DNA of 64,000 nt from Candidatus Latescibacterota bacterium (GCA_965197905.1 CBDAOB010000004.1:896001-960000), one strand, 5' to 3'; positions 26,062 through 62,522 are shown, counted from the first letter of the stretch. Notes: generated from the letters alone by a model not told the origin. A program made the numbers and translations.

Positions 26062-26111
26062 AAGTATAGGACAAATAAAGACCGTTATCGTTAGTGACGC
26101 CGAGGGTCCGT
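26062..26111 (-). repeat. Junction motif, subfamily A copy
   Basis: Minus strand reads ACGGACCCTCGGCGTCACTAACGATAACGGTCTTTATTTGTCCTATACTT; aligns with copies at 44224, 61519 and 62480. Confidence 0.85.
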
Positions 26112-26172
26112 GCGCCATCGGGTGGCTTGGGACGACCGCGACGAGCTTGGTGCCGAATTGGCCAGCGGCGCC
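26112..26172 (+). pseudogene. 61-bp internal fragment of an FlgD-Ig domain
   Basis: 55/61 nt identical (manual count) to 23143-23203; encodes RHRVAWDDRDELGAELASGA. Confidence 0.85.
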
Positions 26173-26200
26173 GATAATGCCATTTATTTGCCCTGTCCTT
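26172..26200 (+). repeat. Junction motif, truncated subfamily B-like copy
   Basis: CGATAATGCCATTTATTTGCCCTGTCCTT versus CGATAACGCGTTTTATTCGCCCTATCCTT at 53754-53782. Confidence 0.7.
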
Positions 26201-26330
26201 CGCTGGAGTTGGTAATTATATCCTGATTGTCAATAGGCCCAGAGAACATCCACTATAACCCCTACCTCCGGAATATTGGCCGATTTTAATTTTCTTAGCT
26301 TTTCAGACTGTTTTTCGATGTCCAAAAGCC

Positions 26331-26351
26331 CCTTTATAAATTCCTATACAT
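26331..26351 (+). mobile_element. IS91/ISCR-like oriIS end
   Basis: CCTTTATAAATTCCTATACAT matches the recalled IS91-family oriIS pattern TTT..AAATTCCTATnC. Confidence 0.5.
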
Positions 26352-26395
26352 AGACCCAAGCTCTGGCACAATTCTAAATGAAAGAGGTGTTGCTG

Positions 26396-27367
26396 ATGAA
26401 AATACTCTTTATTCCTTTGCCAGAACTATTCAAACAGCCCTGGTACGATGGCTTTGTCGCGGCGATTGACGGACGCTATCCTATTCGGCTTTGCGACCCC
26501 GCTAAACCATTGGCCGATCAATTTCAGGGTATCGACGTTGTGGTTGAGTTGGGGGGCGCAACTCGAAATATGATTGATGCCGGTCTAGCAGCGGGCGTAA
26601 AACTGTGGCAAATTTACCGTACCGGCCTGGATGAAGTAGATGTGGCCTATTTCTTAGAGCAGGGTCTGCCCCTGACCCATACGCCCGGCCATTTTAGCGC
26701 CGTCGCCTTGGCCGAGCAAGCACTTTTTTTGATGCTCTGCCTGGCCAAGAACTTTAAAGCCAGCCAGCAGAGCGTGCGCTCGCGGGTACTTTGTGCCCCA
26801 ACCACCGACGAGTTGGCCGGGAAGAGCTTAGGCCTGATTGGACTGGGCGCGAGTGGCCGCGAACTGGCCAAGCGGGCTTGGGCGATGGGTATGCGGACCA
26901 TGGCCATAGATATAGCCGATGTCCCGCAAGCGACACGTGACGAATTGCATATTGCATTCTTTGGCGACCCGTCGCAATTGGACAAGGTGTTGGTCGAGGC
27001 AGATTACCTGTCGATCCACACACCGCTTACATCGCGGACCCGACATATGATTGACCGGCGCGTCTTGGAACTGATGAAACCAACGGCCGTGTTGATCAAC
27101 GTTGCCCGCGGCGGGATTGTGGATGCGGATGCTCTCTTCGAGGCGCTACAGATCGGGCAGATTTGTGGCGCCGGATTAGATGTGTTCGCCCAAGAACCGA
27201 TAGACCCAGCCCATCCCTTATTGCAGATGGAGAATGTGATTATCACGCCGCACGCGGCCGGGGTGACCACAGAAACCGCGCTACGACGTGGCCAGGCGTT
27301 TGCCGAGAACGTGGACCGCGTCGCCCAAGGCCTGTCGCCACTATACCAGGTCATGTCTGTTGAATAA
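26396..27367 (+). CDS. D-isomer-specific 2-hydroxyacid dehydrogenase
   Basis: GLIGLGASG, INVARG, GLDVFAQEP and ITPH motifs; GAGGTG RBS; visibly lower GC than its neighbours. Confidence 0.9.
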   Translation: MKILFIPLPELFKQPWYDGFVAAIDGRYPIRLCDPAKPLADQFQGIDVVVELGGATRNMIDAGLAAGVKLWQIYRTGLDEVDVAYFLEQGLPLTHTPGHFSAVALAEQALFLMLCLAKNFKASQQSVRSRVLCAPTTDELAGKSLGLIGLGASGRELAKRAWAMGMRTMAIDIADVPQATRDELHIAFFGDPSQLDKVLVEADYLSIHTPLTSRTRHMIDRRVLELMKPTAVLINVARGGIVDADALFEALQIGQICGAGLDVFAQEPIDPAHPLLQMENVIITPHAAGVTTETALRRGQAFAENVDRVAQGLSPLYQVMSVE

Positions 27368-27434
27368 GCCGTACGATCTCCGCAAGATTGCTCTAGCTGA
27401 GAGAAAACGCTGAACCGCCAGGTGGGAAAGCATA

Positions 27435-30207: not shown

Positions 30208-30236
30208 GGTTCATTCCAATGTCTATAACCACCCGA

Positions 30237-30280
30237 CCTTGCCGCAAGCAATTGTCGTGGTGTTTATTTCTTTCTTTTGG
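30237..30280 (+). repeat. Junction motif, degenerate copy
   Basis: CCTTGCCGC-N13-GGTGTTTATT with spacing identical to subfamily A; the CGATAA and -10-like parts are eroded. Confidence 0.5.
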
Positions 30281-32128: not shown

Positions 32129-32992
32129 ATGCGAATATCAGAACAGAAAACCTACGACTGCGAACCAACCATGACCGACAGCCAAGTGCTGGAATTTTGC
32201 AAAAACGGGTATCTGATGCTTGAGGGCATCGTTCCCGATGAAGTTAATCGCACGACGATGGAATACTGCAACGAACATTCCGATGTGGAGCCCAACGGCA
32301 TCCTGCTGGAAGACTGGTTCGTCGAGAACGTGATCGTCAACCCGGCGGCCTCCGGTGCCGTGCGTTCGCTCTTAGGGGCTGATTTCCACCTGCCTGTACT
32401 GATGAGCAATCATCGTGTGCAATGTCCGATTCCGGCTATCGGCGGTTGGCATGTGGACGGCAACTATCACTACACGCACGAACTCAATTTTCTGCAAGTT
32501 TTCTACTATCCCCAAGATACGCCCATTGAAATGGGGCCGACGCAGATTGTGCCAGGCTCACATCTCGTGCGCAACAAACACAGATTCATGGCACATCTGG
32601 GGAGCATCCGGGATGCAAAGCCCACAACTGCGCCCGCCGGCTCGATCGTTCTCACCATCTATCATATCTGGCACCGTCGGGGCCCCTCAACGGCAACGGG
32701 CACCCGCAATATGCTCAAGTATTTCTACTGGCGCACCACGCCGCCGAAGCGGGACTGGGTGGTTGAGCCGGGTTTCGATTTTGCCACGGCCCAATACGCC
32801 GGTCCCGCCTTTGGCTATGTAGAGAAGTTCCGCGACGCAATCAAAGTAACGGAGATGTTCTTGTGGCTCTGTGGACGCCACAAGTCGTTCCAAAATCTGG
32901 GCGGGCAAAGCTGGCCCCTGCCTGCGGATCGCACTGACCTCCCTTATGGTTTCCCCCCAGGGTTGCCCCAGCCCGGATCTGTTGAGTTGTAG
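32129..32992 (+). CDS. PhyH-family dioxygenase
   Basis: FCKNGYLMLEG, WHVD, YYPQDT, VPGSH and IWH motifs. Confidence 0.9.
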   Translation: MRISEQKTYDCEPTMTDSQVLEFCKNGYLMLEGIVPDEVNRTTMEYCNEHSDVEPNGILLEDWFVENVIVNPAASGAVRSLLGADFHLPVLMSNHRVQCPIPAIGGWHVDGNYHYTHELNFLQVFYYPQDTPIEMGPTQIVPGSHLVRNKHRFMAHLGSIRDAKPTTAPAGSIVLTIYHIWHRRGPSTATGTRNMLKYFYWRTTPPKRDWVVEPGFDFATAQYAGPAFGYVEKFRDAIKVTEMFLWLCGRHKSFQNLGGQSWPLPADRTDLPYGFPPGLPQPGSVEL

Positions 32993-34319: not shown

Positions 34320-35080
<761 letters not shown>

Positions 35081-35156: not shown

Positions 35157-35216
35157 AAGGGTAGGGCGAATAGTTGGTATTATCGCCATTAGCGGCAAGG
35201 TAGGCGAGTTTGTGGC
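35157..35216 (-). repeat. Junction motif, subfamily B copy
   Basis: 51/60 identical (manual count) to 53723-53782, in inverted orientation. Confidence 0.9.
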
Positions 35217-37199: not shown

Positions 37200-38153
37200 A
37201 TGTCTGAATCAACTTACCGCAAAGCTCCGTTGGGCTTTACGAAAGAACAATGGGAGGAGTTTGATCGAGAAGGCTTACTGATCATCGAAGACGCTCTGAC
37301 ACAAGACGAGATTGATTATTACTTGAATGCAATTGATGAACTTATCGCCTCAGACTCGAACTACGAAGAAGGAGAATTCTATGGTCCGGACAATTTGGTG
37401 ACAAAAGATCCCGTCTTCGCGGAGTTAATCGATCACCCCCGCCATGTCGGTTATGCCTGCGACATCTACGGAGAATTGCTCAAGCTGCACGTCTCTCAGG
37501 CCTTTATTCGTCCACACTGCCCTTCACCCCACGTATGGCATCCAGATGGGGCCCGCGCTTTGCCTTACGGCGTGTTTTCGCCCAGACTACCGCTGCAAAT
37601 CAAGATTGGTTACTGGCTTACCGATCTGCCACGTCCAAAGATGGGGAATTTTGTGTGTATGCCGGGCAGTCATCGCCGTCAGTATTTTGAAGAGTTTGCA
37701 AAACATACAAGCATGCCGGGTGAGAAGATTCTCTGCTGCCCTAAAGGAACGATGACAATCATGCACTGCGGGCTCTGGCATCGCGTTGACCCCAATGAGA
37801 GCGATGTGGCGCGAAAGAATATCTTCATCGCTTATTGTCCGTCTTGGCTCTGCGAGGCGGACCGACTTGAGTGCGATCCGGATTGGTTGAAAACATTAAA
37901 CCGGGAACAGCGCATTATCATGCGCAGCTACACTCACGGCTATGCTCGCTCCAAGCCGCCCAAGGAGGATTTTCCCCTGTTTTTGGATCGAAATACTGGA
38001 CTGGCTTCGGATCCGAGATATTCCGACGATGTTCCGCCTAATTGGCGGAAGCGAAGAGTCGCGGTTGAACAGTGGGATATTGACCTCGGGCCGCCGGTAC
38101 TTAAACGGCGCCCAGATACGAGGGCAGAAGGTCCGTGCCGCCGTCGACGGTAA
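37200..38153 (+). CDS. PhyH-family dioxygenase
   Basis: AAGGAG RBS; FDREG, WHPD, MPGSH and LWH motifs; paralog of 18561-19459. Confidence 0.9.
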   Translation: MSESTYRKAPLGFTKEQWEEFDREGLLIIEDALTQDEIDYYLNAIDELIASDSNYEEGEFYGPDNLVTKDPVFAELIDHPRHVGYACDIYGELLKLHVSQAFIRPHCPSPHVWHPDGARALPYGVFSPRLPLQIKIGYWLTDLPRPKMGNFVCMPGSHRRQYFEEFAKHTSMPGEKILCCPKGTMTIMHCGLWHRVDPNESDVARKNIFIAYCPSWLCEADRLECDPDWLKTLNREQRIIMRSYTHGYARSKPPKEDFPLFLDRNTGLASDPRYSDDVPPNWRKRRVAVEQWDIDLGPPVLKRRPDTRAEGPCRRRR

Positions 38154-40217: not shown

Positions 40218-40269
40218 TGCGATGCGCTCTGATCGTGGGCTCGCTCACAGCCGAAAGGATTTCGTACCG

Positions 40270-43902: not shown

Positions 43903-44147
43903 ATTCCCTCCCTCGCTGCGGTAGAGGGAACAAAGGTACTATAATGGCCGAGCGTCAAGTATACTTTTTCTGACGGGGCAAGGTGGCTCTGTGGCGGACG
44001 CAGAGCAGATATCTGGGCGGGCGCTCGCTCGCCATCTTCAAGGCGCTCCACATCGACGAAGTGGAGTTCGCTACGCCTGATCCTTCCGCGGGCGCAGTGT
44101 GTCTACCCAATTCAAGCGCCGCCATAAAAGCGGCGTTCAAGGCGCCC

Positions 44148-44268
44148 TAAATAGATCCGCTAGCGCTTCGGGCCCGTTTCCCTCAGCCTGCCACCATATT
44201 CTTCGAGTGACCCCAAATCCCAACCCTCGCCGCGACTATCGATAACGGTGTTTATTTAGCCTATACTT
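44148..44268 (+). mobile_element. ~121-bp non-coding element ending in junction motif subfamily A
   Basis: Near-identical to the reverse complement of 61519-61647 from TAAATAGATCCGCTAGCGC through GGTGTTTATT; ends CCTATACTT. Confidence 0.85.
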
Positions 44269-44358
44269 CCGACCATGAAGGGACGGCGGTGCAGCTACGT
44301 TTCGCATTGCGCGACGCGAGTCTCTACTCGTTCTGATTCAAGGTACCGGAGGAATGAG
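44269..44358 (+). pseudogene. 3' 90-bp stump of a paralog of the downstream gene (direct repeat of 45816-45905)
   Basis: 84/90 identical; 4 of the 6 differences are synonymous third positions. Confidence 0.9.
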
Positions 44359-45904: not shown

Positions 45905-45911
45905 GAGCCGC

Positions 45912-46994: not shown

Positions 46995-47053
46995 TCTATC
47001 TACCTCCTAAATTTCGCGCGGCCACAACACCTTGCTCGACCAAGAGAACTCCG

Positions 47054-47944: not shown

Positions 47945-47969
47945 CGCTGTCAATCAACCGCTCCCGCCA

Positions 47970-48665: not shown

Positions 48666-48721
48666 GGATCAGGTTGCGATGCGCCATGTGCGGATTTGAA
48701 GCAGTCGGCTCGTGCCCGTTG

Positions 48722-49609: not shown

Positions 49610-49617
49610 GTCGTGGC

Positions 49618-49700
49618 CTATTCGAAGAGGTTGTTGAACAAGATTGCCGTACCTGAGAGTCCGTGCAAGTCGACGGCGTGCGTCCCGGCGGGACGGCGGG
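49618..49700 (-). pseudogene. Possible internal stump of a PhyH-like gene
   Basis: HAVDLHGLSGTAILFNNLFE* resembles the PhyH 'G.AGT..LFN' strand. Confidence 0.35.
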
Positions 49701-49748
49701 GGATCTTGCGCAAGGACGTAATCGGCCCTATTCCTGTGGAATGCTGAC

Positions 49749-51263: not shown

Positions 51264-52158
51264 GAGCAGAGCCGCCGACTCGTCCCCGGGTCAGCGGGTG
51301 TCGCTGCTTCGCCCACTCGTACCGTTCGGCGTACGACTGGCGCGCGCCGACGGCGTCGAAATGTTCCCGCTCGGCCTCGGTCCTGGCCTTCAGTTCCGCG
51401 AGCGGGTCGATCATGGCCCTGATGCGGGGGATGTCGCTGCTCGCAAAGGGCTCGACGGGATCGTAGATGCTACCCCTGTGGTTGTACCGCATGAAGGACG
51501 CGATCTCTTCGTCCGTCTCCGGCCATGCGGCGAAACGCAGCTTGAGATAGCGCCGGCCGGGCTGCATGCCGTACACGCCGTGGTAGATCTTCTGGGTGAA
51601 GAAGACGATATCACCCGGGTCGGACTCAACGACAACACCTGGGACGTCCGTGGGGCTGAGCCCGTAGACCTTCTGAGTGGTGTCCTCTTCCTGCTCGTTG
51701 AGCGGAAGGAGGTCGTCATAAAGGGAGGGTCTGTGTGACCCCGGGATGACACGAAGCGCCCCGGTGTCGCCCCTGAGCTTCTCTAGGTAGAGGTGGAAGC
51801 TGTATGTAGTGGCGTGAGGCTCGCCGGGTCGGTCCGAGTGCCATCGATGCTCGCCCGTGCCGATTACACCTGAATAGGACAGGCTACCGCCAGACCCGTT
51901 CCAGACAAAACGCGGTCCCAGCAGCTCCTCGACCGTGCCGAATATCCGGTCGTCAACGAGCATCCGCGTAGCCACCGGGCTCTTCTCTATGATGTCCTCA
52001 ATGCCCTGGTTCTCTCCTGGCGGTCCACCTCCCCTCTGCTCCGCGAACAGCTTGTCCACTTCCTGGCTGAGCGACTCCATCTCCTCGGCCGAAAACAGCT
52101 GCCTCAAGCGGATGAACCCAAAGTCGTAGAAGTGGGACTTCTGCTGCGGTGTGATCAT
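51256..52158 (-). CDS. PhyH-family dioxygenase
   Basis: FYDFGF, WHSD, GALRVIPGSH and PGDIVFF..IYH motifs. Confidence 0.9.
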   Translation of the reverse strand: MITPQQKSHFYDFGFIRLRQLFSAEEMESLSQEVDKLFAEQRGGGPPGENQGIEDIIEKSPVATRMLVDDRIFGTVEELLGPRFVWNGSGGSLSYSGVIGTGEHRWHSDRPGEPHATTYSFHLYLEKLRGDTGALRVIPGSHRPSLYDDLLPLNEQEEDTTQKVYGLSPTDVPGVVVESDPGDIVFFTQKIYHGVYGMQPGRRYLKLRFAAWPETDEEIASFMRYNHRGSIYDPVEPFASSDIPRIRAMIDPLAELKARTEAEREHFDAVGARQSYAERYEWAKQRHPLTRGRVGGSAPI

Positions 52159-52186
52159 CTCTGCGTTCCTTCGGGCTGCGGTCGAA

Positions 52187-53638
52187 CTACACCTCCGGAA
52201 GCAGCGCGTCGTCGTCTGTTTCTTGCTGCCACTGCTGCAACAAAGTGGTCATGCTCGAGATGCGATCCTTCTGGCCGGCGTCGTCGTACAGGTTGTTTTC
52301 CTCGGTGGGATCTTCGTTCATGTCGTAGAGCTCGCATTGATCGACGGTGCTCAGATTGAGCTTCCATCCATCGCCCGAAATCACCGTGCGCCACGGTTGC
52401 CAGGAGGGCCAGGGAACACCGGCTCCGGCTCGAATCAGCGGCCCATTAGTTTCAATGAACACAGCGTTCTCTTCGAGGGAAGTTTCACCGCGGAGCACCG
52501 GTTCGAGACTCTTTCCTTCCAAACCGGAAGGCGGCGGCACACCCATCAGACCCAGGAGGGTGGGCACCAGGTCGATCTGACTCATGTGCCCGGCTATCTG
52601 TTTGTATTCATCTGTAATCCACGGCACCCGCATCAACAGCGGCACCTTGATCGACTCCTGATAGAGCACCTCCTTGTGAAGCATCCCGTGTGATCCCATC
52701 ATCTCCCCATGGTCGCTGGTGTAGACGACGATGGTGTTGTCGGCGACGCCAGACTCGCTCAGCGCTTCGAGGATCGGCGCCATAGCTCGATCCACACTGG
52801 AGATAGCCTCCCAATAGCGGGCGCGTAGTCGCAGCCAGCCGGCTTCGTCCCCTAGGTCCTCACCGTCGATTTCGGGAAGATCCCCGTAGAACTCCGCCTT
52901 CTTCTGGTGGTAGAGCGAAGCATTTGCCGGGGGCCCTCTCAAGAAATGAGGTTCCCGCGGCAGCTTGGCCGGATCGTAAAGGCTGCTGGGCCGGCTGGGA
53001 AGCGGGCTGTGGGGGTCCATGAATCCGGCGTACAACACGAACGGTCGTTCGCCGTTCTCTCTGATGAAACGGGCGGCTTCGCGACCCACGTACGCGTTCT
53101 TGCTCATCTCCCACGGCAAATCGGCCGTCATTTCACGAGAGAAGATCCTGGCGGCCATCCATTCAACGTCTGGTGTGTACCCATTCTCGAGCAGGAAGTG
53201 GTGGTAGTCGCTGAAGCGCGACAGATACTCCCTTTGAGTGAAGAAGAGGCGGTAGTAATCCTCCATGCCGACCCAGTGTTCGAACCCGTGCTGCGGGAAG
53301 ATCTCGTCGCCCAGGTGCCATTTCCCGATGTAGCCACATTCGTATTCGGACGGCACCATCTCGGCAATAGTGGGCGTACTTGGTTTGAGAGGAATGTTGA
53401 GATGTATGCAGCCGTTGGTATGGGGATAGAGGCCGGTCATGATGCTGGATCGCGCCGGCGTGCATAAAGGCTGCGTCACGTAGGCATTCTGGAAGACAAA
53501 GCTGTCATTCGCCAGTGCGTTGAGGTTGGGTGTCTGGATGAGGTGGTTGCCATAGCAGCGCATCGTGTCGAACCGCTGTTGGTCGGTAAAGATGAACAGC
53601 AGGTTTGGCTTCGTCGGAGGTCTATTAATCTGGGCCAT
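52187..53638 (-). CDS. Sulfatase (formylglycine type)
   Basis: FTDQQR, CTPARSSIMTG (CxPxR), GKWHL and SDHGEM motifs. Confidence 0.93.
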   Translation of the reverse strand: MAQINRPPTKPNLLFIFTDQQRFDTMRCYGNHLIQTPNLNALANDSFVFQNAYVTQPLCTPARSSIMTGLYPHTNGCIHLNIPLKPSTPTIAEMVPSEYECGYIGKWHLGDEIFPQHGFEHWVGMEDYYRLFFTQREYLSRFSDYHHFLLENGYTPDVEWMAARIFSREMTADLPWEMSKNAYVGREAARFIRENGERPFVLYAGFMDPHSPLPSRPSSLYDPAKLPREPHFLRGPPANASLYHQKKAEFYGDLPEIDGEDLGDEAGWLRLRARYWEAISSVDRAMAPILEALSESGVADNTIVVYTSDHGEMMGSHGMLHKEVLYQESIKVPLLMRVPWITDEYKQIAGHMSQIDLVPTLLGLMGVPPPSGLEGKSLEPVLRGETSLEENAVFIETNGPLIRAGAGVPWPSWQPWRTVISGDGWKLNLSTVDQCELYDMNEDPTEENNLYDDAGQKDRISSMTTLLQQWQQETDDDALLPEV

Positions 53639-53722
53639 TGCCGTACTTCCCTTGACGGTCAGAGTGGTTCGGGATACTAGGCAGATTAAGGGCGGTCTCG
53701 GTTATGCGGTCAAGGAGCGCCC

Positions 53723-53782
53723 GCCACAAACTCGCCTACCTTGCCGCTATTGACGATAACGCGTTTTATTCGCCCTATCCTT
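53723..53782 (+). repeat. Junction motif, subfamily B copy
   Basis: GCCACAAACTCGCCTACCTTGCCGCTATTGACGATAACGCGTTTTATTCGCCCTATCCTT; ends 42 bp before ATG 53824. Confidence 0.9.
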
Positions 53783-53823
53783 TTGCCAGCATTGCATGGG
53801 AACAGTCTCAGGAGGAGAAACCG

Positions 53824-54873
53824 ATGGTTCCGCATCTCAGAGAGGCTCTTGACGCTGAAACTGTCTATCGCGTTGACCTGACCAACGGCACGAACATGTC
53901 CGGGTGCGTTGTTCATCAAGACGACCAGCGCATCCGACTCAGGCTGAACGACGGTTTCGCAACCACGATTCCCTGGTCGCGGATTCACGCTCTGTCCGAT
54001 GGGGACGGATCAAACCAACGTGTGATCCAGGCCTTACCGACCGATCCTGGATCCAAAGACTACAAAACACTTGCATTGAAGACGGTAGATGAAGTTACGA
54101 TCCGCAAGAACCCGACGACGCAACTACACCTGCGTGCCGTCGAATGGCCCGATCAGACATTCCTGCTCTGGTTTCCTGAAGTAATCGTGCGCGACGTCTG
54201 GGCGCAATGGGACGCTGAAGTGGCGCGCCAGGACTTCGTCACGACTGAAGACGGCTCACTGGTTTGGATGAGGGACCTGCCCGGGACCGCGATCGTGAAG
54301 GCGACACTGACCCCTCGCGATTATTCCGTAGATCTCGAAATCCGAGTCAAAGCGAAACCGGATCACGAGATTCCTATGGCAGTGCCGCAGAATTGCTTGC
54401 TCTTTTCGGCGGCTCCCGACTTTGCTTGCAACGACTACAGCCGGATCTTGGTCCGCGTCAAAGAACAGTGGAGGTCATTGCTGGATCTGCGAACGGCCCC
54501 GGGCGCACGGGCGGAACAACACCCGGTCAGCGTGATCTATCGCGAGGGGTTTCTCAAGTCCAGTCACGGCAACATCTGGAAGGGCAGATCGGAGGAGGGG
54601 ACGATGCCGGGATGTGTCGATCATCCTCTCATCGCTTGTGTTTCCAAGTCTGGCGACCGAACGGTCGCGACCGCCTCGGAAGAGTATCAGGGGGTCTTCC
54701 ACAACCACCAGCTGCCTTACTTGCTCTGCATTCACAGCTCTCAAACCGGAGTTCGCATTCCCGAAGGAGAAGAGGCCATATTCCGCCAAGTCATCTGGTT
54801 TGTCGATGGCGGCGTCGAAGAAGCGGTCGCCGCATTTGATCGCGATGTTGCCGACAAGGTTCTCAATCCTTAG
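53824..54873 (+). CDS. Hypothetical protein
   Basis: AGGAGG RBS; 349-aa ORF; no family recognised. Confidence 0.65.
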   Translation: MVPHLREALDAETVYRVDLTNGTNMSGCVVHQDDQRIRLRLNDGFATTIPWSRIHALSDGDGSNQRVIQALPTDPGSKDYKTLALKTVDEVTIRKNPTTQLHLRAVEWPDQTFLLWFPEVIVRDVWAQWDAEVARQDFVTTEDGSLVWMRDLPGTAIVKATLTPRDYSVDLEIRVKAKPDHEIPMAVPQNCLLFSAAPDFACNDYSRILVRVKEQWRSLLDLRTAPGARAEQHPVSVIYREGFLKSSHGNIWKGRSEEGTMPGCVDHPLIACVSKSGDRTVATASEEYQGVFHNHQLPYLLCIHSSQTGVRIPEGEEAIFRQVIWFVDGGVEEAVAAFDRDVADKVLNP

Positions 54874-54934
54874 GACGACCGCACCCTTGGGAGCGATCGC
54901 CATGTTGCTCGTATTCTGAACAGGAGATGGCATT

Positions 54935-55930
54935 GTGAAACTCTTTCTGAACGTCGGCGATGATCCCTCTGCGGAAAGACTGAGATTCGCGCGTCAGATC
55001 GGCGTCGACGGGGTCATGGCAGCGCCCGGCCCTCAGTCACCCGACCTCGGTTACCACGAGCTGCAATTCCTCCAGGATTTGAGGCGGCACATCGAGTCGT
55101 TCGATCTCGAGTTCTACGGCATCCGGCTGCTGCCGTGGACGTGGACCTACAAATGGCAGCTCGGCCTGCCGGGCGGCGACGAGCAGCTTGAGCGCATGGC
55201 GACGACGGTGCGCAACATCGGCGCGGCAGGGATCGACATGCTGGTGTACAACATGCACGCCCTGCGGATCTATCGAACCAGCCCCGACGCTGCCTGGCGC
55301 GGCGGCGCCACGGCCACGGCATTCGACTACGACGACGTCCGCGACCTGCCGTTGATGGCGGGTGGACCTGGAACCGACGCGGATCTCATTCCCGAGAGCC
55401 ACCGCAGGCCGATCGGAGATGAGGAGATGTGGGGCAATCTCGCGTACCTGCTCAAGGCGGTCGTACCCGTGGCCGAGGGAGCGGGGGTGCGTCTCGCCCT
55501 GCACCCGGATGACCCTCCGGTAGCGTCGATCGCCGGCGTGGCTCGGATCATGCGCAGCCCCGAGGCGTTCCGGCGCATCATCGACATGGAGCCCAGCCCG
55601 AGCCACGGCATCGGTCTGTGTCATGGGTGCTTCGGCGAGATGGGGGCGGACGTTCCCGCCGAGATCCGCTACTTCGGCAGTCGGCAGCGCATCTTCTTCG
55701 TCGACTTCCGCAATGTCCGCGGCGTCACCGAGCGCTTCTCGGAGACCTTTCCCGACGACGGCGATGTCGACATGGCCGAGTGCATGAGGGCCTTCAAGGA
55801 GGTCGGCTTCGACGGACCGGTTTCGCCCGACCATACTCTCAAGATCGAAGGCGACAGCGACTGGGGGCATCGCTACTGGGCGTATGCCATCGGTCATACA
55901 CGTGGACTGGCACAGGCGATGGGAATCTGA
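54935..55930 (+). CDS. uxuA: Mannonate dehydratase
   Basis: YNM, LALHPDDPP, FRNVRG, DGDVDM and PDH motifs. Confidence 0.8.
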   Translation: MKLFLNVGDDPSAERLRFARQIGVDGVMAAPGPQSPDLGYHELQFLQDLRRHIESFDLEFYGIRLLPWTWTYKWQLGLPGGDEQLERMATTVRNIGAAGIDMLVYNMHALRIYRTSPDAAWRGGATATAFDYDDVRDLPLMAGGPGTDADLIPESHRRPIGDEEMWGNLAYLLKAVVPVAEGAGVRLALHPDDPPVASIAGVARIMRSPEAFRRIIDMEPSPSHGIGLCHGCFGEMGADVPAEIRYFGSRQRIFFVDFRNVRGVTERFSETFPDDGDVDMAECMRAFKEVGFDGPVSPDHTLKIEGDSDWGHRYWAYAIGHTRGLAQAMGI

Positions 55931-55992
55931 TGGACGGCGGAGTGTCAGTCCGCTGTTCACCGAAGGGCACGTAGCAGTCAAGGAGGGTCAGC

Positions 55993-56757
55993 ATGCCAGG
56001 AATCCTGGAAGATAAGGTCGCTTTGGTAACAGGCTCAGGGTCTGGAATAGGCCGCGCTGCCGCTCTAGCTTTTGCTAAAGAAGGAGCTAAGGTCGTCGTG
56101 GCGGATGTGAATCCCAATGCCGGCGAGGAGACGGTGGGCAAGATCGACGAAGCGGATGGACATGCCACCTTCATCCACGTCGACGTGTCGAAGGCGACCG
56201 CGGTCGAGGAGATGGTCAACAAGGCCGTCGAGGTCTACGGCAAGCTGGACTGCGCCCACAACAACGCTGGCATTGAGGGTATCACTGTTCCTACCCACGA
56301 ATACCCCGAGGAGGTCTGGGATCGCGTCATAACCATCAATTTGAAAGCGGTGTGGTTATGTATGAAGTACGAGATTCAACAGATGCTCAGGCATGGAGGT
56401 GGAGCCATCGTCAACACCTCGTCTATAGCCGGCCTGGTTGGCACCAGTAGCGGCATATGCGCCTACATTGCTAGCAAACATGGTGTCGTTGGTATCACCA
56501 AGACCGCAGCGCTGGAGTACGCTCAACAAGGCATTCGCGTCAACGCCGTTTGCCCAGGGCTCACGGAAACACCAATGGCTGACCGATTGCTGGACGGCGA
56601 CCCACAGGCTGCCGCGCGGGTTGCCGCCAACTATCCTCTAGCGCGTTTCGGGGCTCCAGAAGAGGTTGCCGAGGCCGTGATATGGCTGTGCTCGGATGCG
56701 TCATCCTTTGTCACTGGACACGCCCTGTCTGTCGATGGAGGTTATGTAGCCCAGTAG
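55993..56757 (+). CDS. SDR family oxidoreductase
   Basis: TGSGSGIG, HNNAG, YIASK and VDGG motifs. Confidence 0.92.
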   Translation: MPGILEDKVALVTGSGSGIGRAAALAFAKEGAKVVVADVNPNAGEETVGKIDEADGHATFIHVDVSKATAVEEMVNKAVEVYGKLDCAHNNAGIEGITVPTHEYPEEVWDRVITINLKAVWLCMKYEIQQMLRHGGGAIVNTSSIAGLVGTSSGICAYIASKHGVVGITKTAALEYAQQGIRVNAVCPGLTETPMADRLLDGDPQAAARVAANYPLARFGAPEEVAEAVIWLCSDASSFVTGHALSVDGGYVAQ

Positions 56758-56916
56758 CCGCATCTTTCATCTTTGAAGTCCGCGTCCCTCCTCTCCGCGC
56801 GTCGACAGCACTGTCAAGCGACGAAGCTGCTGTTGACCGCTTCAACAGCGACGTCGTGCCTGGTCGCCGAAACCACTATCGTCACCTGAGCACCCTGAGC
56901 ACAAAGGAGAGTACTG

Positions 56917-58422
56917 ATGTCGAAACAACCCGTACCCCAACCCTTTCTCGATTGGTTTGGGGTGTGGCCCGGTCAGGCTGGACGCGACGACCAAGGTCGC
57001 GCATGGCTCCAGGACCCGCCCCAGGGAATCCGTCTGAAGGTACAACCGGCGCGAAAGTCAGAAGTTTTCTTCAGGCCGACAAAACCTTGGGGACGCAACT
57101 CGATCAGCCACCCGTTTATCATTCTCGAGAATGGTCGCTGCCGCATGTGGTACCGCGAGACGGTGGCGTCAGGCGACGACCTCTTCAATCTGGATCGCTA
57201 TGCCGAAAGCGACGACGGTTTCGACTGGCAGTTTCCGGAATTGGGGTTGTACGAATTCGAGGGTTCGAAGGCGAACAACATCCTCTGTGACGGCGGCTTC
57301 TTCAACATTCACTCCGTTTTCAAGGATCCCACTGCCACACCCGAAGCACGCTACAAAGCGATCGAATCGAGGGGCCAGCTCTTTCGCCGCGGCAAACCAG
57401 TGCAGCTTTCCCAGCAGACCAAGCAGGAGATCCGCGAGGTCCGCAAGACGATGGAGCTGAACGGCTACAAACCAGAGGAGATTGACGCCGAGGCGGAGAT
57501 CCGCCACCAGGTGCGCGGTGCCGTCTCCCCAGACGGCTTGCGCTGGACCGCTCTGGACGAACCTCTGCTGGATACCGGACACACCCAGCTCGACACCCAG
57601 AACATCGCCGCCTTCGACGAGGACACCCGCGAGTATGTCGCTTTCCTGCGCGGCCAGCTGGATCGCCGGCGGTCCGTGCGGCGCACCGGCGGAAAGGAGT
57701 TTGGCAACTGGCATCCGACGCGATTGGTGCTCACCATCGACAGCCACGATGAACCGTTCGAGGACATCTACACCTCCGCCTATTGCCGTTGCCCGGGAAG
57801 CCGTCGCCATCTGATGTTCCCCACCATCTACCATCGCTTGTCATCCACCCTCGATATCCAGCTTGCCAGCAGTCACGACGGCTGGCTTTGGCGTCGCACG
57901 GAGCGGGTTCCGATTGTTACTCGGGAGAGCGGAGACCGGGAGTACGGAGCTATCTACGCCAGCCCCAACCTCGTGCCTCTGGGCGATGGATGGGGCATCC
58001 CCTACATGGGCATCTACCCTCGCCACGACGGCGGCGGCCGCTTTGCCACCTACGAACATCCGGTCTCGGAGTACCGCTGGGCCATGTGGAAGCCGGACCG
58101 ATTGGTGGCGCTGGAGGCAGACAGCGAGGGGCAATTCACCACCGTCGAACGCGTTTGTGGAGGACGGGAGCTGCGCTTGAACTTCCATACGGAGCAGGGT
58201 GGTTGGGTGAAAGTGGGGATCGCCCATCGTCCGGGCACGCCAGCTTCGCCTCTGCGAGAACTAGAAGGATTGGGTCTCGACGATTGCGACGTTTTAGCGG
58301 GCGACGAAGTGTCGAAGGTGGTCAGTTGGAACGGAAGGGCCAACCTCGGAGAGTTGGAGGGACAGCAGCTTTCAGTCAGGGTACGAGTCGCCCGTGCCCG
58401 GATTTTTTCTATAGCGCTCTAG
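56917..58422 (+). CDS. GH32/GH43-like propeller protein with C-terminal beta-sandwich
   Basis: YAESDDGFDW, FKDPTATPEARYK, SPDGLRW and LDTQN motifs; paralog of 13403-14998. Confidence 0.7.
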   Translation: MSKQPVPQPFLDWFGVWPGQAGRDDQGRAWLQDPPQGIRLKVQPARKSEVFFRPTKPWGRNSISHPFIILENGRCRMWYRETVASGDDLFNLDRYAESDDGFDWQFPELGLYEFEGSKANNILCDGGFFNIHSVFKDPTATPEARYKAIESRGQLFRRGKPVQLSQQTKQEIREVRKTMELNGYKPEEIDAEAEIRHQVRGAVSPDGLRWTALDEPLLDTGHTQLDTQNIAAFDEDTREYVAFLRGQLDRRRSVRRTGGKEFGNWHPTRLVLTIDSHDEPFEDIYTSAYCRCPGSRRHLMFPTIYHRLSSTLDIQLASSHDGWLWRRTERVPIVTRESGDREYGAIYASPNLVPLGDGWGIPYMGIYPRHDGGGRFATYEHPVSEYRWAMWKPDRLVALEADSEGQFTTVERVCGGRELRLNFHTEQGGWVKVGIAHRPGTPASPLRELEGLGLDDCDVLAGDEVSKVVSWNGRANLGELEGQQLSVRVRVARARIFSIAL

Positions 58423-58445
58423 CTCGCCTCTAAAAGCAGCGAGGC

Positions 58446-59630
58446 TCAGTCGAAGGTCACCGCCTCTTCGCTTTCGATCTTCGCGGGGTCGATCTCGTAT
58501 CCGAAGCCGGGGTTGTCACTCACAGTAAGCAAACCGTCTGCGAACTGCGGGCTTTCGTTGAGGAAGAAATAGCTCAGGGCCGCATGTTTGATCAGCATCT
58601 CCACGTACGGCGTGTGGATGGGCGACTGCACCGATGAGAACGCCATGCCGGCCGGCGATACTCCCTGGTGGCAGATGGTGATGACGTCGTAGCTGGTGGC
58701 GAGGGCGGCAATCTTCAGCACCTCCGACAGGCCGCCGGACCAATTGAGGTCGGGCTGGATGATGTCCAATGCCTCGGCGTCCAGGAAACGTTTGAATCCC
58801 CAGCGGGTGTACTCGTGCTCGGCGCCGGCGATCGGGATGTTCGTCTTCTCGCGGATCTTGCGGTAGGAGTCGATCCGATCCGGCATCGCCACCTCCTCCA
58901 GCCAGCGCGGGCGGTACTCGGCGATCTGCTCGGCCAGCCGCGTCACGTAGTTAACATCCATCGACTGCCAGCAGTCGAGCATGATGTCGTCTTCATCGCC
59001 AAGCGCCTCGCGCACCGTTTTCACCATCTGCACGTTGAGCTTGAGTCCCTCAGGACCGGACATGGGTCCGTGCCGAAAGAACCACTTTTGCGCTTTGTAG
59101 CCACGGGACTTCATCTCTTGGGCGCGGTCGCGGACGAGATCAAAGTCGGTGACCGAATATCCGAGCATGCTGGCGTAAGCGGGAATGGTTTTTTGCGTCG
59201 GACCGCCGAGCAGACGATATACCGGCTGTCCTAGCCATTTGCCCTTGAGATCCCACAGGGCGTTATCGATGACCGAGATTCCCATCATCGGCTCACCCTG
59301 GCGACCATGTACCGAGGAGCGAAACATTACGTCCCAGAGATACTCGGTGGCCAAAGGGTCTTTGCCGATGAGCAGTGACGCCAGCTGCGAAACGTGAAAT
59401 GCGACGCCGTTTCCGACGGAGCCGCAGATTCCGGAGACGCCCTCGTCGGTCTCGATCTGCAGGAAGGTCTCGGTAACGAGGAAGTGGCGATCGTCGGTTG
59501 GCTTACCCGGGCCGCGCGAGCGGAAGTCCGGGTAGATATCGAGCGGACGGACGAGTCGCTCCTCGAAGAACGGTCCGTCTACTTCCATCGTGCCGGACAA
59601 CCGGCGAAGACGAAGGTTGGTGATTTTCAT
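58446..59630 (-). CDS. Enolase-superfamily sugar-acid dehydratase (mandelate racemase/L-rhamnonate dehydratase-like)
   Basis: DNALWDLKGK, MLDCWQS, WLEE, AEHEYTRWG and QPD motifs. Confidence 0.88.
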   Translation of the reverse strand: MKITNLRLRRLSGTMEVDGPFFEERLVRPLDIYPDFRSRGPGKPTDDRHFLVTETFLQIETDEGVSGICGSVGNGVAFHVSQLASLLIGKDPLATEYLWDVMFRSSVHGRQGEPMMGISVIDNALWDLKGKWLGQPVYRLLGGPTQKTIPAYASMLGYSVTDFDLVRDRAQEMKSRGYKAQKWFFRHGPMSGPEGLKLNVQMVKTVREALGDEDDIMLDCWQSMDVNYVTRLAEQIAEYRPRWLEEVAMPDRIDSYRKIREKTNIPIAGAEHEYTRWGFKRFLDAEALDIIQPDLNWSGGLSEVLKIAALATSYDVITICHQGVSPAGMAFSSVQSPIHTPYVEMLIKHAALSYFFLNESPQFADGLLTVSDNPGFGYEIDPAKIESEEAVTFD

Positions 59631-61282
59631 CTGGTCGAATTTCTCTTACCGGGTTGGCGCAGAAGATCGTCTCTGAGCCAGGAGACCCAGCTCATGACCT
59701 CCGTCTGCTGCGCCACCAGGCAGACTTCAAGCATGGCCGGACGTCCCGCGTCGAGGGCTCGATTCAGGGCCGGTTCGAATTCTGTCACGTCTTCAATGCG
59801 CTCGGCGTAAGCCCCGAAGGATCTGGCGAATTCGACGAAGTCCGGATTGTGAAGTTCCGTATCGATCGTGCGCCCATCACACTGTTTGAGCTGCGCTCCC
59901 TTGATCGCCGACAGAGCGCCGTCATTGACGACGATCGTGACGACGTCGATGCCATAGCGCATGGCTGTCGCCAGCTCCGGACTGCCCATGAGAAATCCGC
60001 CGTCGCCGCTGAAGCAGATGACCGGCCGATCGCGATGGGCCACCTTGGCGCCGAGCGCCGCGGGAAAGGCGTAGCCGAGGGACACACCGATGCATGGATA
60101 GAGGAACGTCTGCGGATCTGACACGGGATACTCGGCAAACGTCGAGTAGCCGATGCCGTGAACATCGACGGCGAGGATGCCGTCGTCTGGCAGGCACTGG
60201 CGAATCTCCGGCAGCAGGGGCAGGGGCAGTTGCGAGTCAAAAGGCTTTCGCAACCTGGTCAGCGCTGCCGTCCAGGCAGAGGATGATTCCCGCGGGGTCA
60301 CCTGTTGTGTCAGGGCTGCGAGGGATTCTCTGAGATTGCCCGCAACGCCGACATCACACTCGTATTCTCGGCCGATTTCCGACGGCTCCGGGTCGAACTG
60401 AATGAGGGGCCGGGGAAAGTCACGGCTCCAGGAGGCGGAATCGATGGAGGTGAACCGGCAGCCAATCGCCAGCGTGCAGTCCGCCACCTCGACTGCTTGC
60501 TGGGCGAGATAGCCGCGGACGTCCCGCAAAGCGAGTGGATGGCCCTCGTCGATTACACCCTTGCCGCGCCGGGTTACCATGACTGGAGCCGCCAATTTTT
60601 CGGCGAGCTGTCTCAGTTCCGGTCCGGCACCGGCGGCGATGACGGCGTGTCCGGCAAACAGGATGGGCGTTTGGGCTTGCTCCAGGGTCGCCAGGGCCGT
60701 GTCGACGGCCGCCGAATCGGGGGATGCTACGATTTCGGCAGGGGCGAAAGCCGGAATCCTTTCCGTGCACTCCGCCGCCATGACATCCAGGGGAAACTCG
60801 AGCACTGCCGGTCCGGGACGACGGGAGCGCATTGCCCGGAAGGCCTCTTCCACAAGGATGGGGATTTCGGCTGCAGAACTCGCTGCGGCGCAGTATTTCG
60901 TTATCGGATCGAAGAACCGCATCTGATCGAGACCGTGGAACATCTTGGCCTGGTCTCGACCGCTGTGGGCGGTGTCACTCTGTCCGGTTATCAGGAGGAC
61001 GGGGACGCAGTCCGTGTAGGCCTCGAGAATGCCGGTAGAGGCGTTGCTGGCACCTGGGCCAGGCACGGTGAGGGCAACGCCAACATCGCCCGTCGACCTG
61101 GCGAAACCGTCAGCCATGACAGTCGCGGCGTACTCGTGGCGCACGAGATAGTGATCGATGACGCCATCGCCGAAGCGCTCGAGAGCGTCGTATATGCTCA
61201 GATTCTGGGTGCCCGGCATCCCGAAAACGACGCGAACACCCTGGGCCTTGAGGCATTCGATGAGGAGCTGGCCGCCGGTCAC
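59627..61282 (-). CDS. Thiamine-pyrophosphate-dependent enzyme (acetolactate synthase-like)
   Basis: FGMPG, RHE, GPGASN and GDGGF...VND motifs. Confidence 0.9.
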   Translation of the reverse strand: MTGGQLLIECLKAQGVRVVFGMPGTQNLSIYDALERFGDGVIDHYLVRHEYAATVMADGFARSTGDVGVALTVPGPGASNASTGILEAYTDCVPVLLITGQSDTAHSGRDQAKMFHGLDQMRFFDPITKYCAAASSAAEIPILVEEAFRAMRSRRPGPAVLEFPLDVMAAECTERIPAFAPAEIVASPDSAAVDTALATLEQAQTPILFAGHAVIAAGAGPELRQLAEKLAAPVMVTRRGKGVIDEGHPLALRDVRGYLAQQAVEVADCTLAIGCRFTSIDSASWSRDFPRPLIQFDPEPSEIGREYECDVGVAGNLRESLAALTQQVTPRESSSAWTAALTRLRKPFDSQLPLPLLPEIRQCLPDDGILAVDVHGIGYSTFAEYPVSDPQTFLYPCIGVSLGYAFPAALGAKVAHRDRPVICFSGDGGFLMGSPELATAMRYGIDVVTIVVNDGALSAIKGAQLKQCDGRTIDTELHNPDFVEFARSFGAYAERIEDVTEFEPALNRALDAGRPAMLEVCLVAQQTEVMSWVSWLRDDLLRQPGKRNSTR

Positions 61283-61518
61283 AACTCAACTTCTCTGGGG
61301 CCCCGCGGGAAACCGTAGGGGAGGTCGGTGCGATCGGCGTGCAGCGGCCAACTCTGCCCGCCTAGATTCTGAAACGACTCGTGGTGGCCACAGAGCTCCC
61401 CATCCTCAATCAGCATCATACCGATCACCTGCGCCCGGGGCGAAGTATTGTTGCCCTGTAGATAGAGGATATCCTGTTGTTTCTGACTGTTTTGCTGCAC
61501 TATATCGGAGATCCCAAG
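61279..61518 (-). pseudogene. Collapsed chimeric remnant of a two-gene operon homologous to 31754-32992
   Basis: GISDIVQQNSQKQQDILYLQ..IEDGEL fused in frame to CGHHESFQNLGGQSWPLHADRTDLPYGFP. Confidence 0.88.
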
Positions 61519-61647
61519 ATTATAAGAAGAATAAACACCGTTATCGATAGTCGCGGCGAGGGTCCGTTCCGTGGGGATTTGGGGTCACTCGAAGAATATG
61601 GTGGCAGGCTGAGGGAAACGGACCCGAAGCGCTAGCGGATCTATTTA
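61519..61647 (-). mobile_element. ~129-bp non-coding element ending in junction motif subfamily A (TATAAT variant)
   Basis: Second copy of 44148-44268, with a small TCCGT duplication. Confidence 0.85.
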
Positions 61648-61778
61648 AAGCGGGCGCCGGCCATGGCCACCGGCGGCATGTCTTCCAACCCGAGTTTGAT
61701 AAAGACGGAGTTGCCGCCCCAAAGAAAGGTTGCCACGACGGCAAGCGAGGACGCTTGAGATCGACGCGCTGCCGGCAC
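61641..61778 (-). pseudogene. N-terminal stump of a DMT/EamA transporter, cut by the element
   Basis: LAVVATFLWGGNSVFIKLGLEDMPPVAMAGARF; the stop comes from the first bases of the element. Confidence 0.8.
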
Positions 61779-61788
61779 GGTCGGGCGT

Positions 61789-62433
61789 CTACCGAACTAG
61801 GCGCGCGCTCACGATGTAATCTAGATCGGGGTACTCTTCCTGCAGGTAGGCGTTGCCTTGTAACTGGATCCGGCCCTGGTCTGGCAGCTCCTGGTGTTTG
61901 TCATTGATGCCGTCCACCACGTCCATGCCTTCGGTGACCTTGCCAAAGGTGGCGAATCCCATGCGGTCCAGGTGGACATTGTCGTCGAAGTTGATAAAAA
62001 CCTGGGTGGTGCGACTGTGGGGTTGGTTTGATTTGGCAAAGGCGATGGTCCCGGGCGCGTTGCGGGACTTCACCGGATCGTCCTTGATGGTCGCATCGCG
62101 CCACTTCCTGGAGATCTCCGGATCGCCGTGAATTCCGAACTGTACCACGAAGTTTGGGACGACGCGAAAAAACCGCTGCTCGTCGTAGAAACCGTTCATA
62201 ACCAGATTGTAGAACCGATCCACGCCGACGGGAGCGTGGCTGCGAGTGACCGCCAGTCGGAACTCGCCGGCGCTAGTATTGAACTTGACTACGAATTTGT
62301 CTGGAGCCCGTTCGTTCATCTCGTCGCTCTTGGGCATCAGTAGCGCCTCTTTATCGAACCCTCCGTGTTCTTGCTCGCCGCAGCCAGAAAGAAATAGGAA
62401 GGCGCAAACATAAAGCGCGCAGAGTTTCATCAT
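61789..62433 (-). CDS. Cyclophilin-type peptidyl-prolyl isomerase (lipoprotein)
   Basis: LSGC lipobox; FFRVVPNFVVQFG, RTTQVFIN and FGKV motifs. Confidence 0.92.
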   Translation of the reverse strand: MMKLCALYVCAFLFLSGCGEQEHGGFDKEALLMPKSDEMNERAPDKFVVKFNTSAGEFRLAVTRSHAPVGVDRFYNLVMNGFYDEQRFFRVVPNFVVQFGIHGDPEISRKWRDATIKDDPVKSRNAPGTIAFAKSNQPHSRTTQVFINFDDNVHLDRMGFATFGKVTEGMDVVDGINDKHQELPDQGRIQLQGNAYLQEEYPDLDYIVSARLVR

Positions 62434-62479
62434 TCGAGGTACCCACTCCTTTTATAGATTGTTTCAGAATCCCCGGACG

Positions 62480-62522
62480 AAGTATAGGATAAATAAACAC
62501 CGTTATCGATGTGCGGCGAGGG
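62480..62522 (-). repeat. Junction motif, subfamily A copy
   Basis: Minus strand reads CCCTCGCCGCACATCGATAACGGTGTTTATTTATCCTATACTT; ends 47 bp before the PPIase start. Confidence 0.88.

Follow-up and report, generated by a model that had tools for sequence, protein, structure and literature searches.

Motif copies in the window

This study concerns a short motif, ~45 bp in its solo form, that recurs in a 64,000-nucleotide stretch of the genome of a Candidatus Latescibacterota bacterium (GCA_965197905.1, CBDAOB010000004.1:896001-960000), and its relationship to oriIS, the origin end of ISCR-type insertion sequences. We refer to this whole stretch as the window and count positions from its first letter; in the genome, termed G000, it corresponds to C4:896001-960000. 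The G000 genome is 6.69 Mb in size, has a G+C content of 58% and is 91% complete in 5 contigs. Its relatives (G002, G015, G017, G019, G020, G043 and others) are listed as Candidatus Latescibacterota in public records, with G002 being congeneric with G000.

The core of the motif, CGATAA-N7-TATT, was searched for in the window with no more than 1 mismatch and compared to 100 shuffles. We found 9 matches versus 1.00 expected, with a maximum of 4 in any shuffle. Seven of them are exact, at 26074(-), 26172(+), 35169(-), 44240(+), 53754(+), 61530(-) and 62492(-), and the two with 1 mismatch, at 83 and 37331, are unrelated sequence. The same seven copies were recovered with a 52-column profile of the motif, hereafter the tip, built on 21 genome copies (E 2e-15 to 1e-7). 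They cover 37-210 bp of a longer repeat, for which a 278-column model was searched by nhmmer. In the genome as a whole the strict form of the motif occurs 15 times, 9 of which fall inside C4:895-991 kb (~95 kb), and the sensitive profile detects ~38 sites at E<0.1.

The longest remnant in the window, 210 bp, lies at 44060..44269 on the + strand (long-repeat model 44-273, E 4e-50). It comprises the last ~20 nt of a transposase frame with its TGA stop, a 3' non-coding region of ~205 bp and the tip, …CGATAACGGTGTTTATTTAGCCTATACTT; it is 90% identical to C5:1566480-1566698 in the same genome and faces an open reading frame (ORF) at 44354-45904 (516 aa, no Pfam match) at a distance of 87 bp. A 5'-truncated remnant of 135 bp at 61517..61651 (-), with TATAAT at the end of its tip (model 127-273, E 6e-31), faces a 73-aa ORF at 61279-61500 and, behind it, a 551-aa ORF at 59627-61282. 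The copy at 62478..62525 (-) is a solo tip of ~45 bp (tip profile E 1e-11), 48 bp from a 214-aa ORF at 61789-62433. At 26059..26113 (-) a 55-bp remnant with tip (model 221-275, E 1e-13) faces, over 143 bp, a gene assigned by Pfam to the xylose-isomerase-like TIM barrels (25030-25920); its ortholog in G002 is longer (G2a 74145-74297) and lies ahead of the same gene block.

The other three copies belong to a second sub-type. Back to back with the 55-bp remnant is a partial tip at 26164..26200 (+; …CCCTGTCCTT; profile positions 15-51, E 1e-7), which faces a 2-hydroxyacid dehydrogenase gene (26378-27367) at 179 bp. The tip at 35157..35204 (-; CCTTGCCGC…CCCTACCCTT; E 4e-9), which the long model weakly extends to 35294 (E 0.038), faces a short-chain dehydrogenase/reductase (SDR) gene (34514-35080) at 78 bp, and that at 53735..53784 (+; CCTTGCCGC…CCCTATCCTT; E 1e-12) faces a 389-aa ORF called as 53704-54873, a call that starts upstream of the motif. 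Judging from the sequence, a GGAGGAG-N6-ATG found ~40 bp past this tip is the likelier start of the ORF.

An earlier, sequence-only reading of the window had counted eight copies, all intergenic and each upstream of a co-oriented ORF. Seven of the eight hold (profile E <=1e-7). The eighth, at 30237, does not: at 30231..30268 (+) there is a possible decayed copy (CCTTGCCGC…GGTGTTTATTT) that lacks the terminal CCTATAC and is unconfirmed, with a score of 6.6 bits and an E-value of 0.67 in a search of the window alone. Judged by crude gene calls, the seven copies do lie between genes, apart from the overlap of one with the over-extended start of the gene called at 53704, and all seven have a co-oriented ORF downstream, whose start falls anywhere between 77 bp ahead of and 179 bp beyond the end of the terminal hexamer. 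What that reading overlooked is the repeat of ~270 bp and more behind the motif, as well as an internal fragment of it without a tip, at 18402..18490 (+; model 98-180, E 6e-17).

Five of the 30 window proteins scanned are PhyH-type Fe(II)/2-oxoglutarate dioxygenases (32129-32992, 37200-38153, 40183-41112, 47054-47944 and 51256-52158). Their neighbors include SDRs, 2-hydroxyacid dehydrogenases, a sulfatase, UxuA and a P450, and the region is a paralogue-rich accessory catabolic island. A scan of the window for transfer RNA and transfer-messenger RNA genes gave 0 matches.

The longer repeat and its boundaries

Alignment of the flanks of the copies revealed that homology continues upstream of the motif and not downstream, and searches with blastn and nhmmer identified the motif as the 3' end of a repeat of at least ~270 bp. 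The genome holds 25 matches to this repeat, of which 8 are near the full length of the model, 10 are truncated at the 5' end and retain the tip, and 7 are fragments without a tip. In pairwise comparisons, the copies reach 209-540 bp upstream of the tip. At the other end, homology among paralogous copies ceases 0-6 nt, mostly 1-2 nt, past the TAnnnT hexamer, such that the common downstream end and varied upstream truncation noted in the sequence-only reading are both borne out. A 3' boundary that is fixed and sharp, together with ragged 5' ends, is what characterizes the end of a transposon.

The repeat starts within a reading frame that ends …QFDYA-stop, and the tip is located 200-210 bp past this stop in 7/7 G000 copies. 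A 216-bp repeat is present in only 6 of 41 related genomes. The copies diverge from one another by 10-25%, whereas orthologous DNA diverges by 3-5%.

Truncation is not evenly spread along the repeat. Several independent 5'-truncated copies begin, and several 3'-truncated fragments end, within ~20 nt around …CATGGCCAGCCGACCATAC / CTTGCAAATG…. The fragment at 18402..18490 ends at this hot spot, and exactly at a synteny breakpoint with G002, its flanks mapping to G002 108020-109500 and 99823-100827. G002 holds the complementary right half of this repeat (model 181-273) before the same downstream block. In G020, the tip of an intact element directly precedes CTT-CAAATGCC…, followed by a 45-bp tip of the window type, and has thus been inserted in an older copy at the hot spot; another G020 tip adjoins an older copy at its transposase tail. 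Most copies have CTT directly after CCTATA, and ~10/25 have CTTTG or CTTGG there (tallied by eye), although in G020 the two bases past CCTATAC (TT or AT) track the sub-type and so look like part of the element. IS91 is described as targeting CTTG (PMC13181058). Together with the hot spot and the nesting, this makes nested insertion, or internal cleavage at CTTG-like sites, a reasonable source of remnants that keep their tips.

We also considered whether the repeat is a miniature inverted-repeat transposable element and rejected this: it has no terminal inverted repeats, with its start and end being unlike by eye, and its 5' boundary varies over 209-540 bp.

Linkage to a rolling-circle transposase

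A simple ORF listing found no shared ORF beside the first 7 copies. However, a Pfam search of G000 for Y2_Tnp, the IS91-type HUH transposase domain, returned only 3 matches (C4:514519-514929, C4:963080-963235 and C4:870998-871108), and each of them adjoins a repeat copy on the same strand. Furthermore, 5 of the 6 longest remnants were matched by tblastn with intact transposases of relatives, at 54-82% aa identity over 44-91 residues. Transposases of the IS91 family are HUH single-strand nucleases. Searches of the genome for other enzymes gave a single, broken Y1_Tnp (IS200/IS605) match at C4:702 kb, far off and unrelated, and 15 Phage_integrase matches, none of them inside the window, the nearest to the copy cluster being a short fragment at C4:995354.

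Of 61 genomes sampled within the family, 30 had Y2_Tnp matches, versus 0 of 14 control genomes. Eleven loci in relatives have open frames of 455-534 aa, and at 8 of these a recognizable tip is present ~200-230 bp past the stop (in two G015 loci of the related CTCACTA-type, otherwise CCTATAC-type); none was recognizable downstream at the remaining three (L082, L085 and L087). One G015 element ends …ATAATGGTGCTTTATCGGTCCTATACGT, which is the motif type of the window. Intact transposase genes are carried by G020, G043, G015 and G019. The complete element in relatives is ~1.81 kb long. Its left end begins GGATGGGCGCCC…, includes a palindrome and does not match the right end in inverted form; since 2 of 4 copies share extra sequence upstream of it, the cleavage site at the termination end (terIS) is blurred. 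A scan of metagenomes for the exact motif type yielded two short contigs (L091 and L092), neither of which reaches the transposase start, both with uninterrupted C-terminal transposase halves ~245 bp upstream of the motif.

The 3 relatives' transposases that were scanned with Pfam all have Zn_Tnp_IS91 together with Y2_Tnp. Two of 2 matched the NCBIfam ISCR_clade_Ia model over nearly its full length (E 1e-105 and 3e-113), with a weaker match to the IS91 equivalog (E 1e-30), although scores for both models are below the strict cut-offs (354-379 bits versus 925 for the ISCR clade model). The G020 transposase is 38.8% identical to that of ISCR1 and 37.7% to that of ISVsa3 (ISCR2), over 87% of its length. 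In an alignment of 6 sequences (ISCR1, ISVsa3 and 4 from Latescibacterota), H189, H191, the zinc-binding cysteines and L-C-R-Y329 (ISCR1 numbering) are invariant. We take the HUH histidines and the LCRY tyrosine to be the catalytic residues.

Kinship with ISCR ends

The sequence-only reading had likened the motif to the oriIS of ISCR elements. We made this comparison with the real ends of annotated plasmid copies of ISCR1 (L089) and ISCR2/ISVsa3 (L090). ISCR1 ends …GGTGGTTTATACTTCCTATACCC / …AAAAAGGTGGTTTATACTTCCTATACCC, 232 bp past the transposase stop, which is the length given for the oriIS-containing region of ISCR1 (PMC6218425), and ISVsa3 ends …GGGCGTTTATTCTTCCTATACGT / …AAAAGGGCGTTTATTCTTCCTATACGT, 235 bp past the stop. 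Aligned in register and ungapped with the last 25 nt of ISCR2, window copies have 20, 19, 19, 19 and 17 identical positions (20/25 for 62478..62525, 19/25 for 61517..61651 and 26059..26113, 17/25 for 53735..53784), compared to 16-18 for the best of 10 shuffles. A copy elsewhere in the genome, at C4:1321456 (AACGGTGTTTATTCTTCCTATACTT), reaches 22/25 by eye. Likeness to the ISCR1 end alone, 16-18/25, does not exceed that of shuffles (16-18). The terminal likeness, the distance past the stop and the kinship of the transposases combined indicate that the motif is an ISCR-type oriIS.

Thus, the resemblance holds against actual ISCR ends, and the proposal of a mobile-element end is upheld, with the motif forming the 3' tip of a transposase-derived repeat. 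The full-length copy downstream of an HUH/Y2 gene that the sequence-only reading suggested looking for is present in relatives and in the two metagenome contigs. The idea of an unannotated new system, on the other hand, has to be given up, as the motif belongs to the described ISCR/IS91 family.

Promoter-like sequence in the tip

The tip was also thought to bring a sigma-70 promoter, with the terminal hexamer 17 bp after the upstream element. We scanned 44000-63000 of the window (19 kb) for the sigma-70 consensus and found 4 sites versus 5.3 expected by chance, 3 of which are motif copies: TCGATA-17-TATAAT (10/12 consensus) at 61517..61651, and TCGATA-17-TATACT (9/12) at 44060..44269 and at 62478..62525. 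The spacing is therefore borne out by the scan for these three copies. Locally, the motif gives the best sigma-70 match, but this consensus scan did not recover tips of the second sub-type (…CCCTATCCTT; TATCCT, TACCCT). A near-consensus sigma-70 promoter, TTGACA-17-TATCTT, is found ~115 bp upstream of the single 16S ribosomal RNA gene of G000 (C4; L137:1358-1386), indicating that the host appears to use canonical sigma-70 architecture.

We assessed the orientation of the ~38 genome sites relative to their neighbors, using gene calls from a crude codon-usage heuristic and not a validated gene finder, and a null of random intergenic positions with random orientation, in which the non-independence of the motif copies should be borne in mind. 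Of 38 sites, 29 face a co-oriented gene (null 0.57, p 0.009), and 27 do so within 300 bp (null 0.39, p 7e-5). Among the 26 strongest sites the figure was 19 by our own count, and in G020 it was 35 of 50. These figures are suggestive, not decisive. The ISCR1 oriIS region has two working outward promoters (POUT) proven experimentally (PMC6218425; PMC13393415, introduction). It is therefore plausible, from sequence features and by the ISCR1 precedent, that the tip acts as an outward sigma-70 promoter for the adjoining gene.

Weak profile matches with the 5' half of the motif alone (CTTGACC/CTTGCC…CGATAAY) were observed at C2:188839, C2:161443, C5:168298, C2:140069 and C3:442782 of G000. The three that were scored (C2:188839, C2:161443 and C3:442782) are 58-155 bp upstream of co-oriented genes. 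Such matches may be what is left of decayed tips, or they may belong to a host promoter or operator with no relation to the motif.

Genome plasticity around the copies

The region surrounding the window is highly rearranged. Between G000 C4:880-975 kb and G002:C1:3680-3820 kb there are 23 common blocks of 0.4-6.4 kb, most of them 93-98% identical, in scrambled order and orientation. Seven of the 46 block ends are no more than 150 bp from a copy in G000, compared to 2.6 expected (p ~0.008), and by our own count ~16 are near a copy in either G000 or G002. Hence rearrangement breakpoints at the motif, expected in the sequence-only reading, do exist for some copies, whereas most breakpoints are elsewhere.

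How genes would come to lie downstream of the motif is not given directly by the known mechanism. In the model for IS91, replication begins at oriIS, crosses the element and may overrun terIS, so that it is DNA on the terIS side that is mobilized (PMC13181058, PMC5737581). Capture of genes downstream of the motif would thus need an extra step; genes beyond oriIS may become neighbors by insertion or by circle closure. No unit of cargo plus end was seen to recur in a second context within G000.

Contigs from 3 DNA runs were compared with 43800-63000 of the window. They are ~90% alike to the window, may derive from related organisms, and have many joints, of which only those at 53790/53799 and 61540/62496 are motif-related. 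In two other public samples, contigs connect 47945 or 46980 with 53790 or 53799, positions 8-17 nt beyond the tip, and in 3/3 runs contigs join the same-strand tips at ~61540-61548 and 62496-62507. These joints suggest alternative arrangements in related populations.

Co-oriented arrays in a related genome

In the relative G020, a sister tip, CCTCATTTTWCCTATAC (<=1 mismatch), occurs 73 times, versus 0 for a reversed-pattern control. The ends are arranged in arrays (loci L123-L136) with a single orientation: 31/31 are on the + strand in G020:C1:3611350-3760097 (149 kb) and 19/19 on the - strand in G020:C1:1736113-1803789 (68 kb). In the 149-kb array, ends are preceded by transposon remnants of ~85-1,530 bp that are 5'-truncated or internally deleted. 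The array is 11% transposon-derived and 27% self-repeated, and ~73% is non-repeated cargo, which includes PhyH dioxygenases, a sulfatase, TIM-barrel isomerase-like enzymes, enolase-superfamily enzymes, aldo-keto reductases, a fucosidase, ankyrin-repeat proteins, an AbiE pair, methyltransferases and other transposases. Of its 132 called genes, 91 are co-directional with the array, and tip variants are common to neighboring units. Similar clusters of ends were seen in G043, G017 and G019.

Two open frames in the G020 arrays, L124:4636-6414 and L129:15566-17209, pass from cargo directly into a transposase tail, with the cargo part of the former being a xylose-isomerase-like TIM barrel. The boundary at which cargo meets truncated element is therefore inside an ORF.

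These arrays raise the possibility that ISCR-type elements in this Latescibacterota family build integron-like, directionally growing arrays, in which each tip is the promoter of the next unit. We put this forward tentatively and hold it to be rather doubtful. Under such a scheme, units consisting of cargo, a truncated transposase tail and oriIS would be added one behind another, head to tail and all in the same orientation, possibly through repeated insertion or cleavage at CTTG-like sites beside or inside older copies. The window might then be an old, scrambled array and G020 a younger one.

Interpretation and alternatives

Our combined findings suggest that the motif represents the oriIS end of ISCR-type insertion sequences, that is, of rolling-circle elements of the IS91 family, and that the copies in G000 are decayed remnants of such elements. 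We estimate the probability of this interpretation at roughly 0.82. The analyses above demonstrate what the motif is, that it has a sharp 3' boundary, and that it is linked to a transposase and akin to the ends of ISCR1 and ISCR2. Indirect indications of rolling-circle transposition are the fixed 3' end with its variable 5' extent, the nested copies and the co-oriented arrays. A complete element, as represented in relatives, has a length of ~1.8 kb and consists of a short 5' end on the terIS side, a transposase gene of ~490 codons, ~205-230 bp of non-coding sequence and the conserved tip, …CGATAAYGG-GTTTATT-NNN-CCTATAC-TT, at which homology between copies stops. In G000 the family appears to be extinct, leaving 5'-truncated pieces of 37-540 bp with a tip and a few internal fragments, which are concentrated in a plastic island made up of accessory genes for catabolism. 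The truncation may have arisen from nested insertion or from cleavage at a CTTG-like site in older copies, followed by deletion, and the elements may have contributed to the shuffling of gene blocks between species. In addition, the tip may be an outward sigma-70 promoter (TCGATA-N17-TATACT), like the POUT promoters of the ISCR1 oriIS region; a promoter role would explain why remnants that face gene starts have persisted.

Several observations weigh against this interpretation or parts of it. Only fragments of the transposase gene, and no intact one, were found in G000 and G002, those in G000 being ~90 codons at most; since this genome is 91% complete, an intact gene may be missing from the assembly. 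For no copy did we find an insertion polymorphism that included an empty site, nor was a target tetranucleotide or terIS defined from the copies. At 36 of the 46 synteny breakpoints the nearest G000 copy is >300 bp away, which indicates another cause for most of them. Several copies are orthologous in G000 and G002 and, considering also their 10-25% divergence from each other, are old. As for the promoter, its role is argued from a consensus match and an orientation bias, with crude gene calls and non-independent copies. The -35 hexamer, TCGATA, is weak (4/6), 9 of the 38 sites are directed away from the adjacent gene, and the promoter-like bases are also conserved in intact elements, presumably for transposase recognition, such that the promoter likeness could be incidental.

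These last points lead to the view that the tips are inert scars, oriIS remnants now without function whose promoter likeness is a by-product of the needs of the transposase. The orientation bias would then reflect an insertion preference, or the removal of insertions that polarize downstream genes. Transposition is the obvious constraint on bases that are the same in the intact elements of relatives, and the poor -35 match, the sites that face away and the modest bias in G020 (35/50) all fit. Yet 27/38 sites face a co-oriented gene within 300 bp versus 39% expected, tips of 37-55 bp survive intact after all upstream sequence has been lost, 3 of 4 sigma-70-like sites in 19 kb are motif copies, and the oriIS region of ISCR1 is a proven source of promoters (PMC6218425). 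We thus regard functionless scars as somewhat unlikely. The opposite view, that gene capture is currently active in G000 and one-ended rolling-circle transposition still moves blocks, would account for the shuffling of blocks that are 93-98% identical between G000 and G002 and for contigs in other samples with alternative joints 8-17 nt beyond one tip, and IS91 and IS1294 are documented to transpose in a one-ended manner at 1-14% (PMC13181058). It is very unlikely given that no intact transposase was found in either genome, that copies differ by 10-25% compared to 3-5% for orthologous DNA, and that no duplicated cargo-plus-end unit was seen within G000.

Explanations without a mobile element fare worse. 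An ordinary host promoter or operator of a regulon, for example for sugar-acid or sulfated-glycan catabolism, would suit the mostly catabolic downstream genes, the copies kept before the same gene block in G002 and the position of the weak 5'-half matches 57-155 bp upstream of co-oriented genes. However, the motif runs upstream into transposase-derived sequence, matches the ends of ISCR1 and ISCR2 and ends abruptly in its homology; moreover, only 6/41 related genomes have the 216-bp repeat, and 9/15 strict matches are crowded into 95 kb, making a regulon highly improbable. Nor is it credible, except at very long odds, that the repeat is a structured non-coding RNA gene or riboswitch-like leader of ~270 nt. 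Its length, conservation and short local palindromes could be taken to point that way, but RNAalifold on 7 copies gave an unfavorable covariation term (+1.23) with few compensatory pairs, an Rfam scan of the window at gathering thresholds had 0 matches, and a protein-coding frame has its end in the 5' part of the repeat.

To our knowledge, ISCR elements are known almost solely as carriers of antibiotic-resistance genes in Proteobacteria. Here, a member of an uncultured candidate phylum carries in its chromosome an ISCR-type element with a nearly identical origin end, surrounded by sulfatase, PhyH-dioxygenase and sugar-acid genes, and sister genomes have tens of copies in one direction. For annotation of these genomes, the motif can be treated as an insertion sequence scar and a likely promoter. 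The genomes provide a natural data set on the rolling-circle assembly of accessory-gene islands outside the clinic, and the pairs of intact transposase and end in relatives are open to activity tests.

Comparison with known systems

The closest resemblance is to ISCR1 and ISCR2, which share with the Latescibacterota elements the pair of transposase domains, 38-39% identity over 87% of the length, the HUH and LCRY motifs, and nearly identical terminal bases (…GTTTATT-CTTCCTATAC). Their tips are 232-235 bp past the stop, compared to 200-210 bp in G000 copies. The settings differ, with proteobacterial hosts and resistance genes or integrons on the one hand, and uncultured Latescibacterota with chromosomal islands of catabolic and symbiosis-type genes on the other, and G000 holds dead remnants only. 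The ISCR1 oriIS region carries outward promoters, and no ISCR element had yet been proven to transpose according to the account in the same source (PMC6218425). For ISCR28, remnant copies with an extra oriIS flanking a gene have been described (PMC12772301).

IS91, IS801 and IS1294 have unlike ends without terminal inverted repeats, move by rolling circle and give rise to one-ended copies with a fixed oriIS end (PMC13181058). The CTT past CCTATA in most copies and the CTTG-like site at the truncation hot spot would be in keeping with this family, but the transposases of relatives fit the ISCR model (E 1e-105) far better than the IS91 equivalog (E 1e-30). Parallels in habitat and gene content are ISCR8, ISCR22, ISCR23 and IS91-type elements in gene clusters of Delftia and Sphingobium, which are environmental and lie beside catabolic dioxygenase genes (PMC5737581). 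Elements of this kind have a conserved 17-bp oriIS 167 bp past the coding sequence and form circular intermediates (PMC5737581, citing Schleinitz 2010), and the catabolic clusters are reported to have been assembled by repeated events (PMC5737581). Those, however, are in few copies on plasmids of Proteobacteria, whereas here the elements are chromosomal, with tens in co-oriented arrays in relatives. ISCR/IS91 elements by catabolic genes, outward promoters and remnant oriIS copies are thus already described in these sources (PMC6218425, PMC5737581, PMC12772301), while our literature search returned no mention of IS91 together with Latescibacter….

Finally, the G020 arrays resemble integron cassette arrays in having co-oriented units of cargo followed by a conserved recombination-type end, with promoter-like sequence facing the next unit. 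No integron integrase, attI or attC was noted, although the Phage_integrase matches in G000 were not examined for integron-integrase features. They differ in that the ends are the oriIS of an HUH transposon and the units, at 0.8-12 kb, are often multi-gene and hold genes in both orientations.

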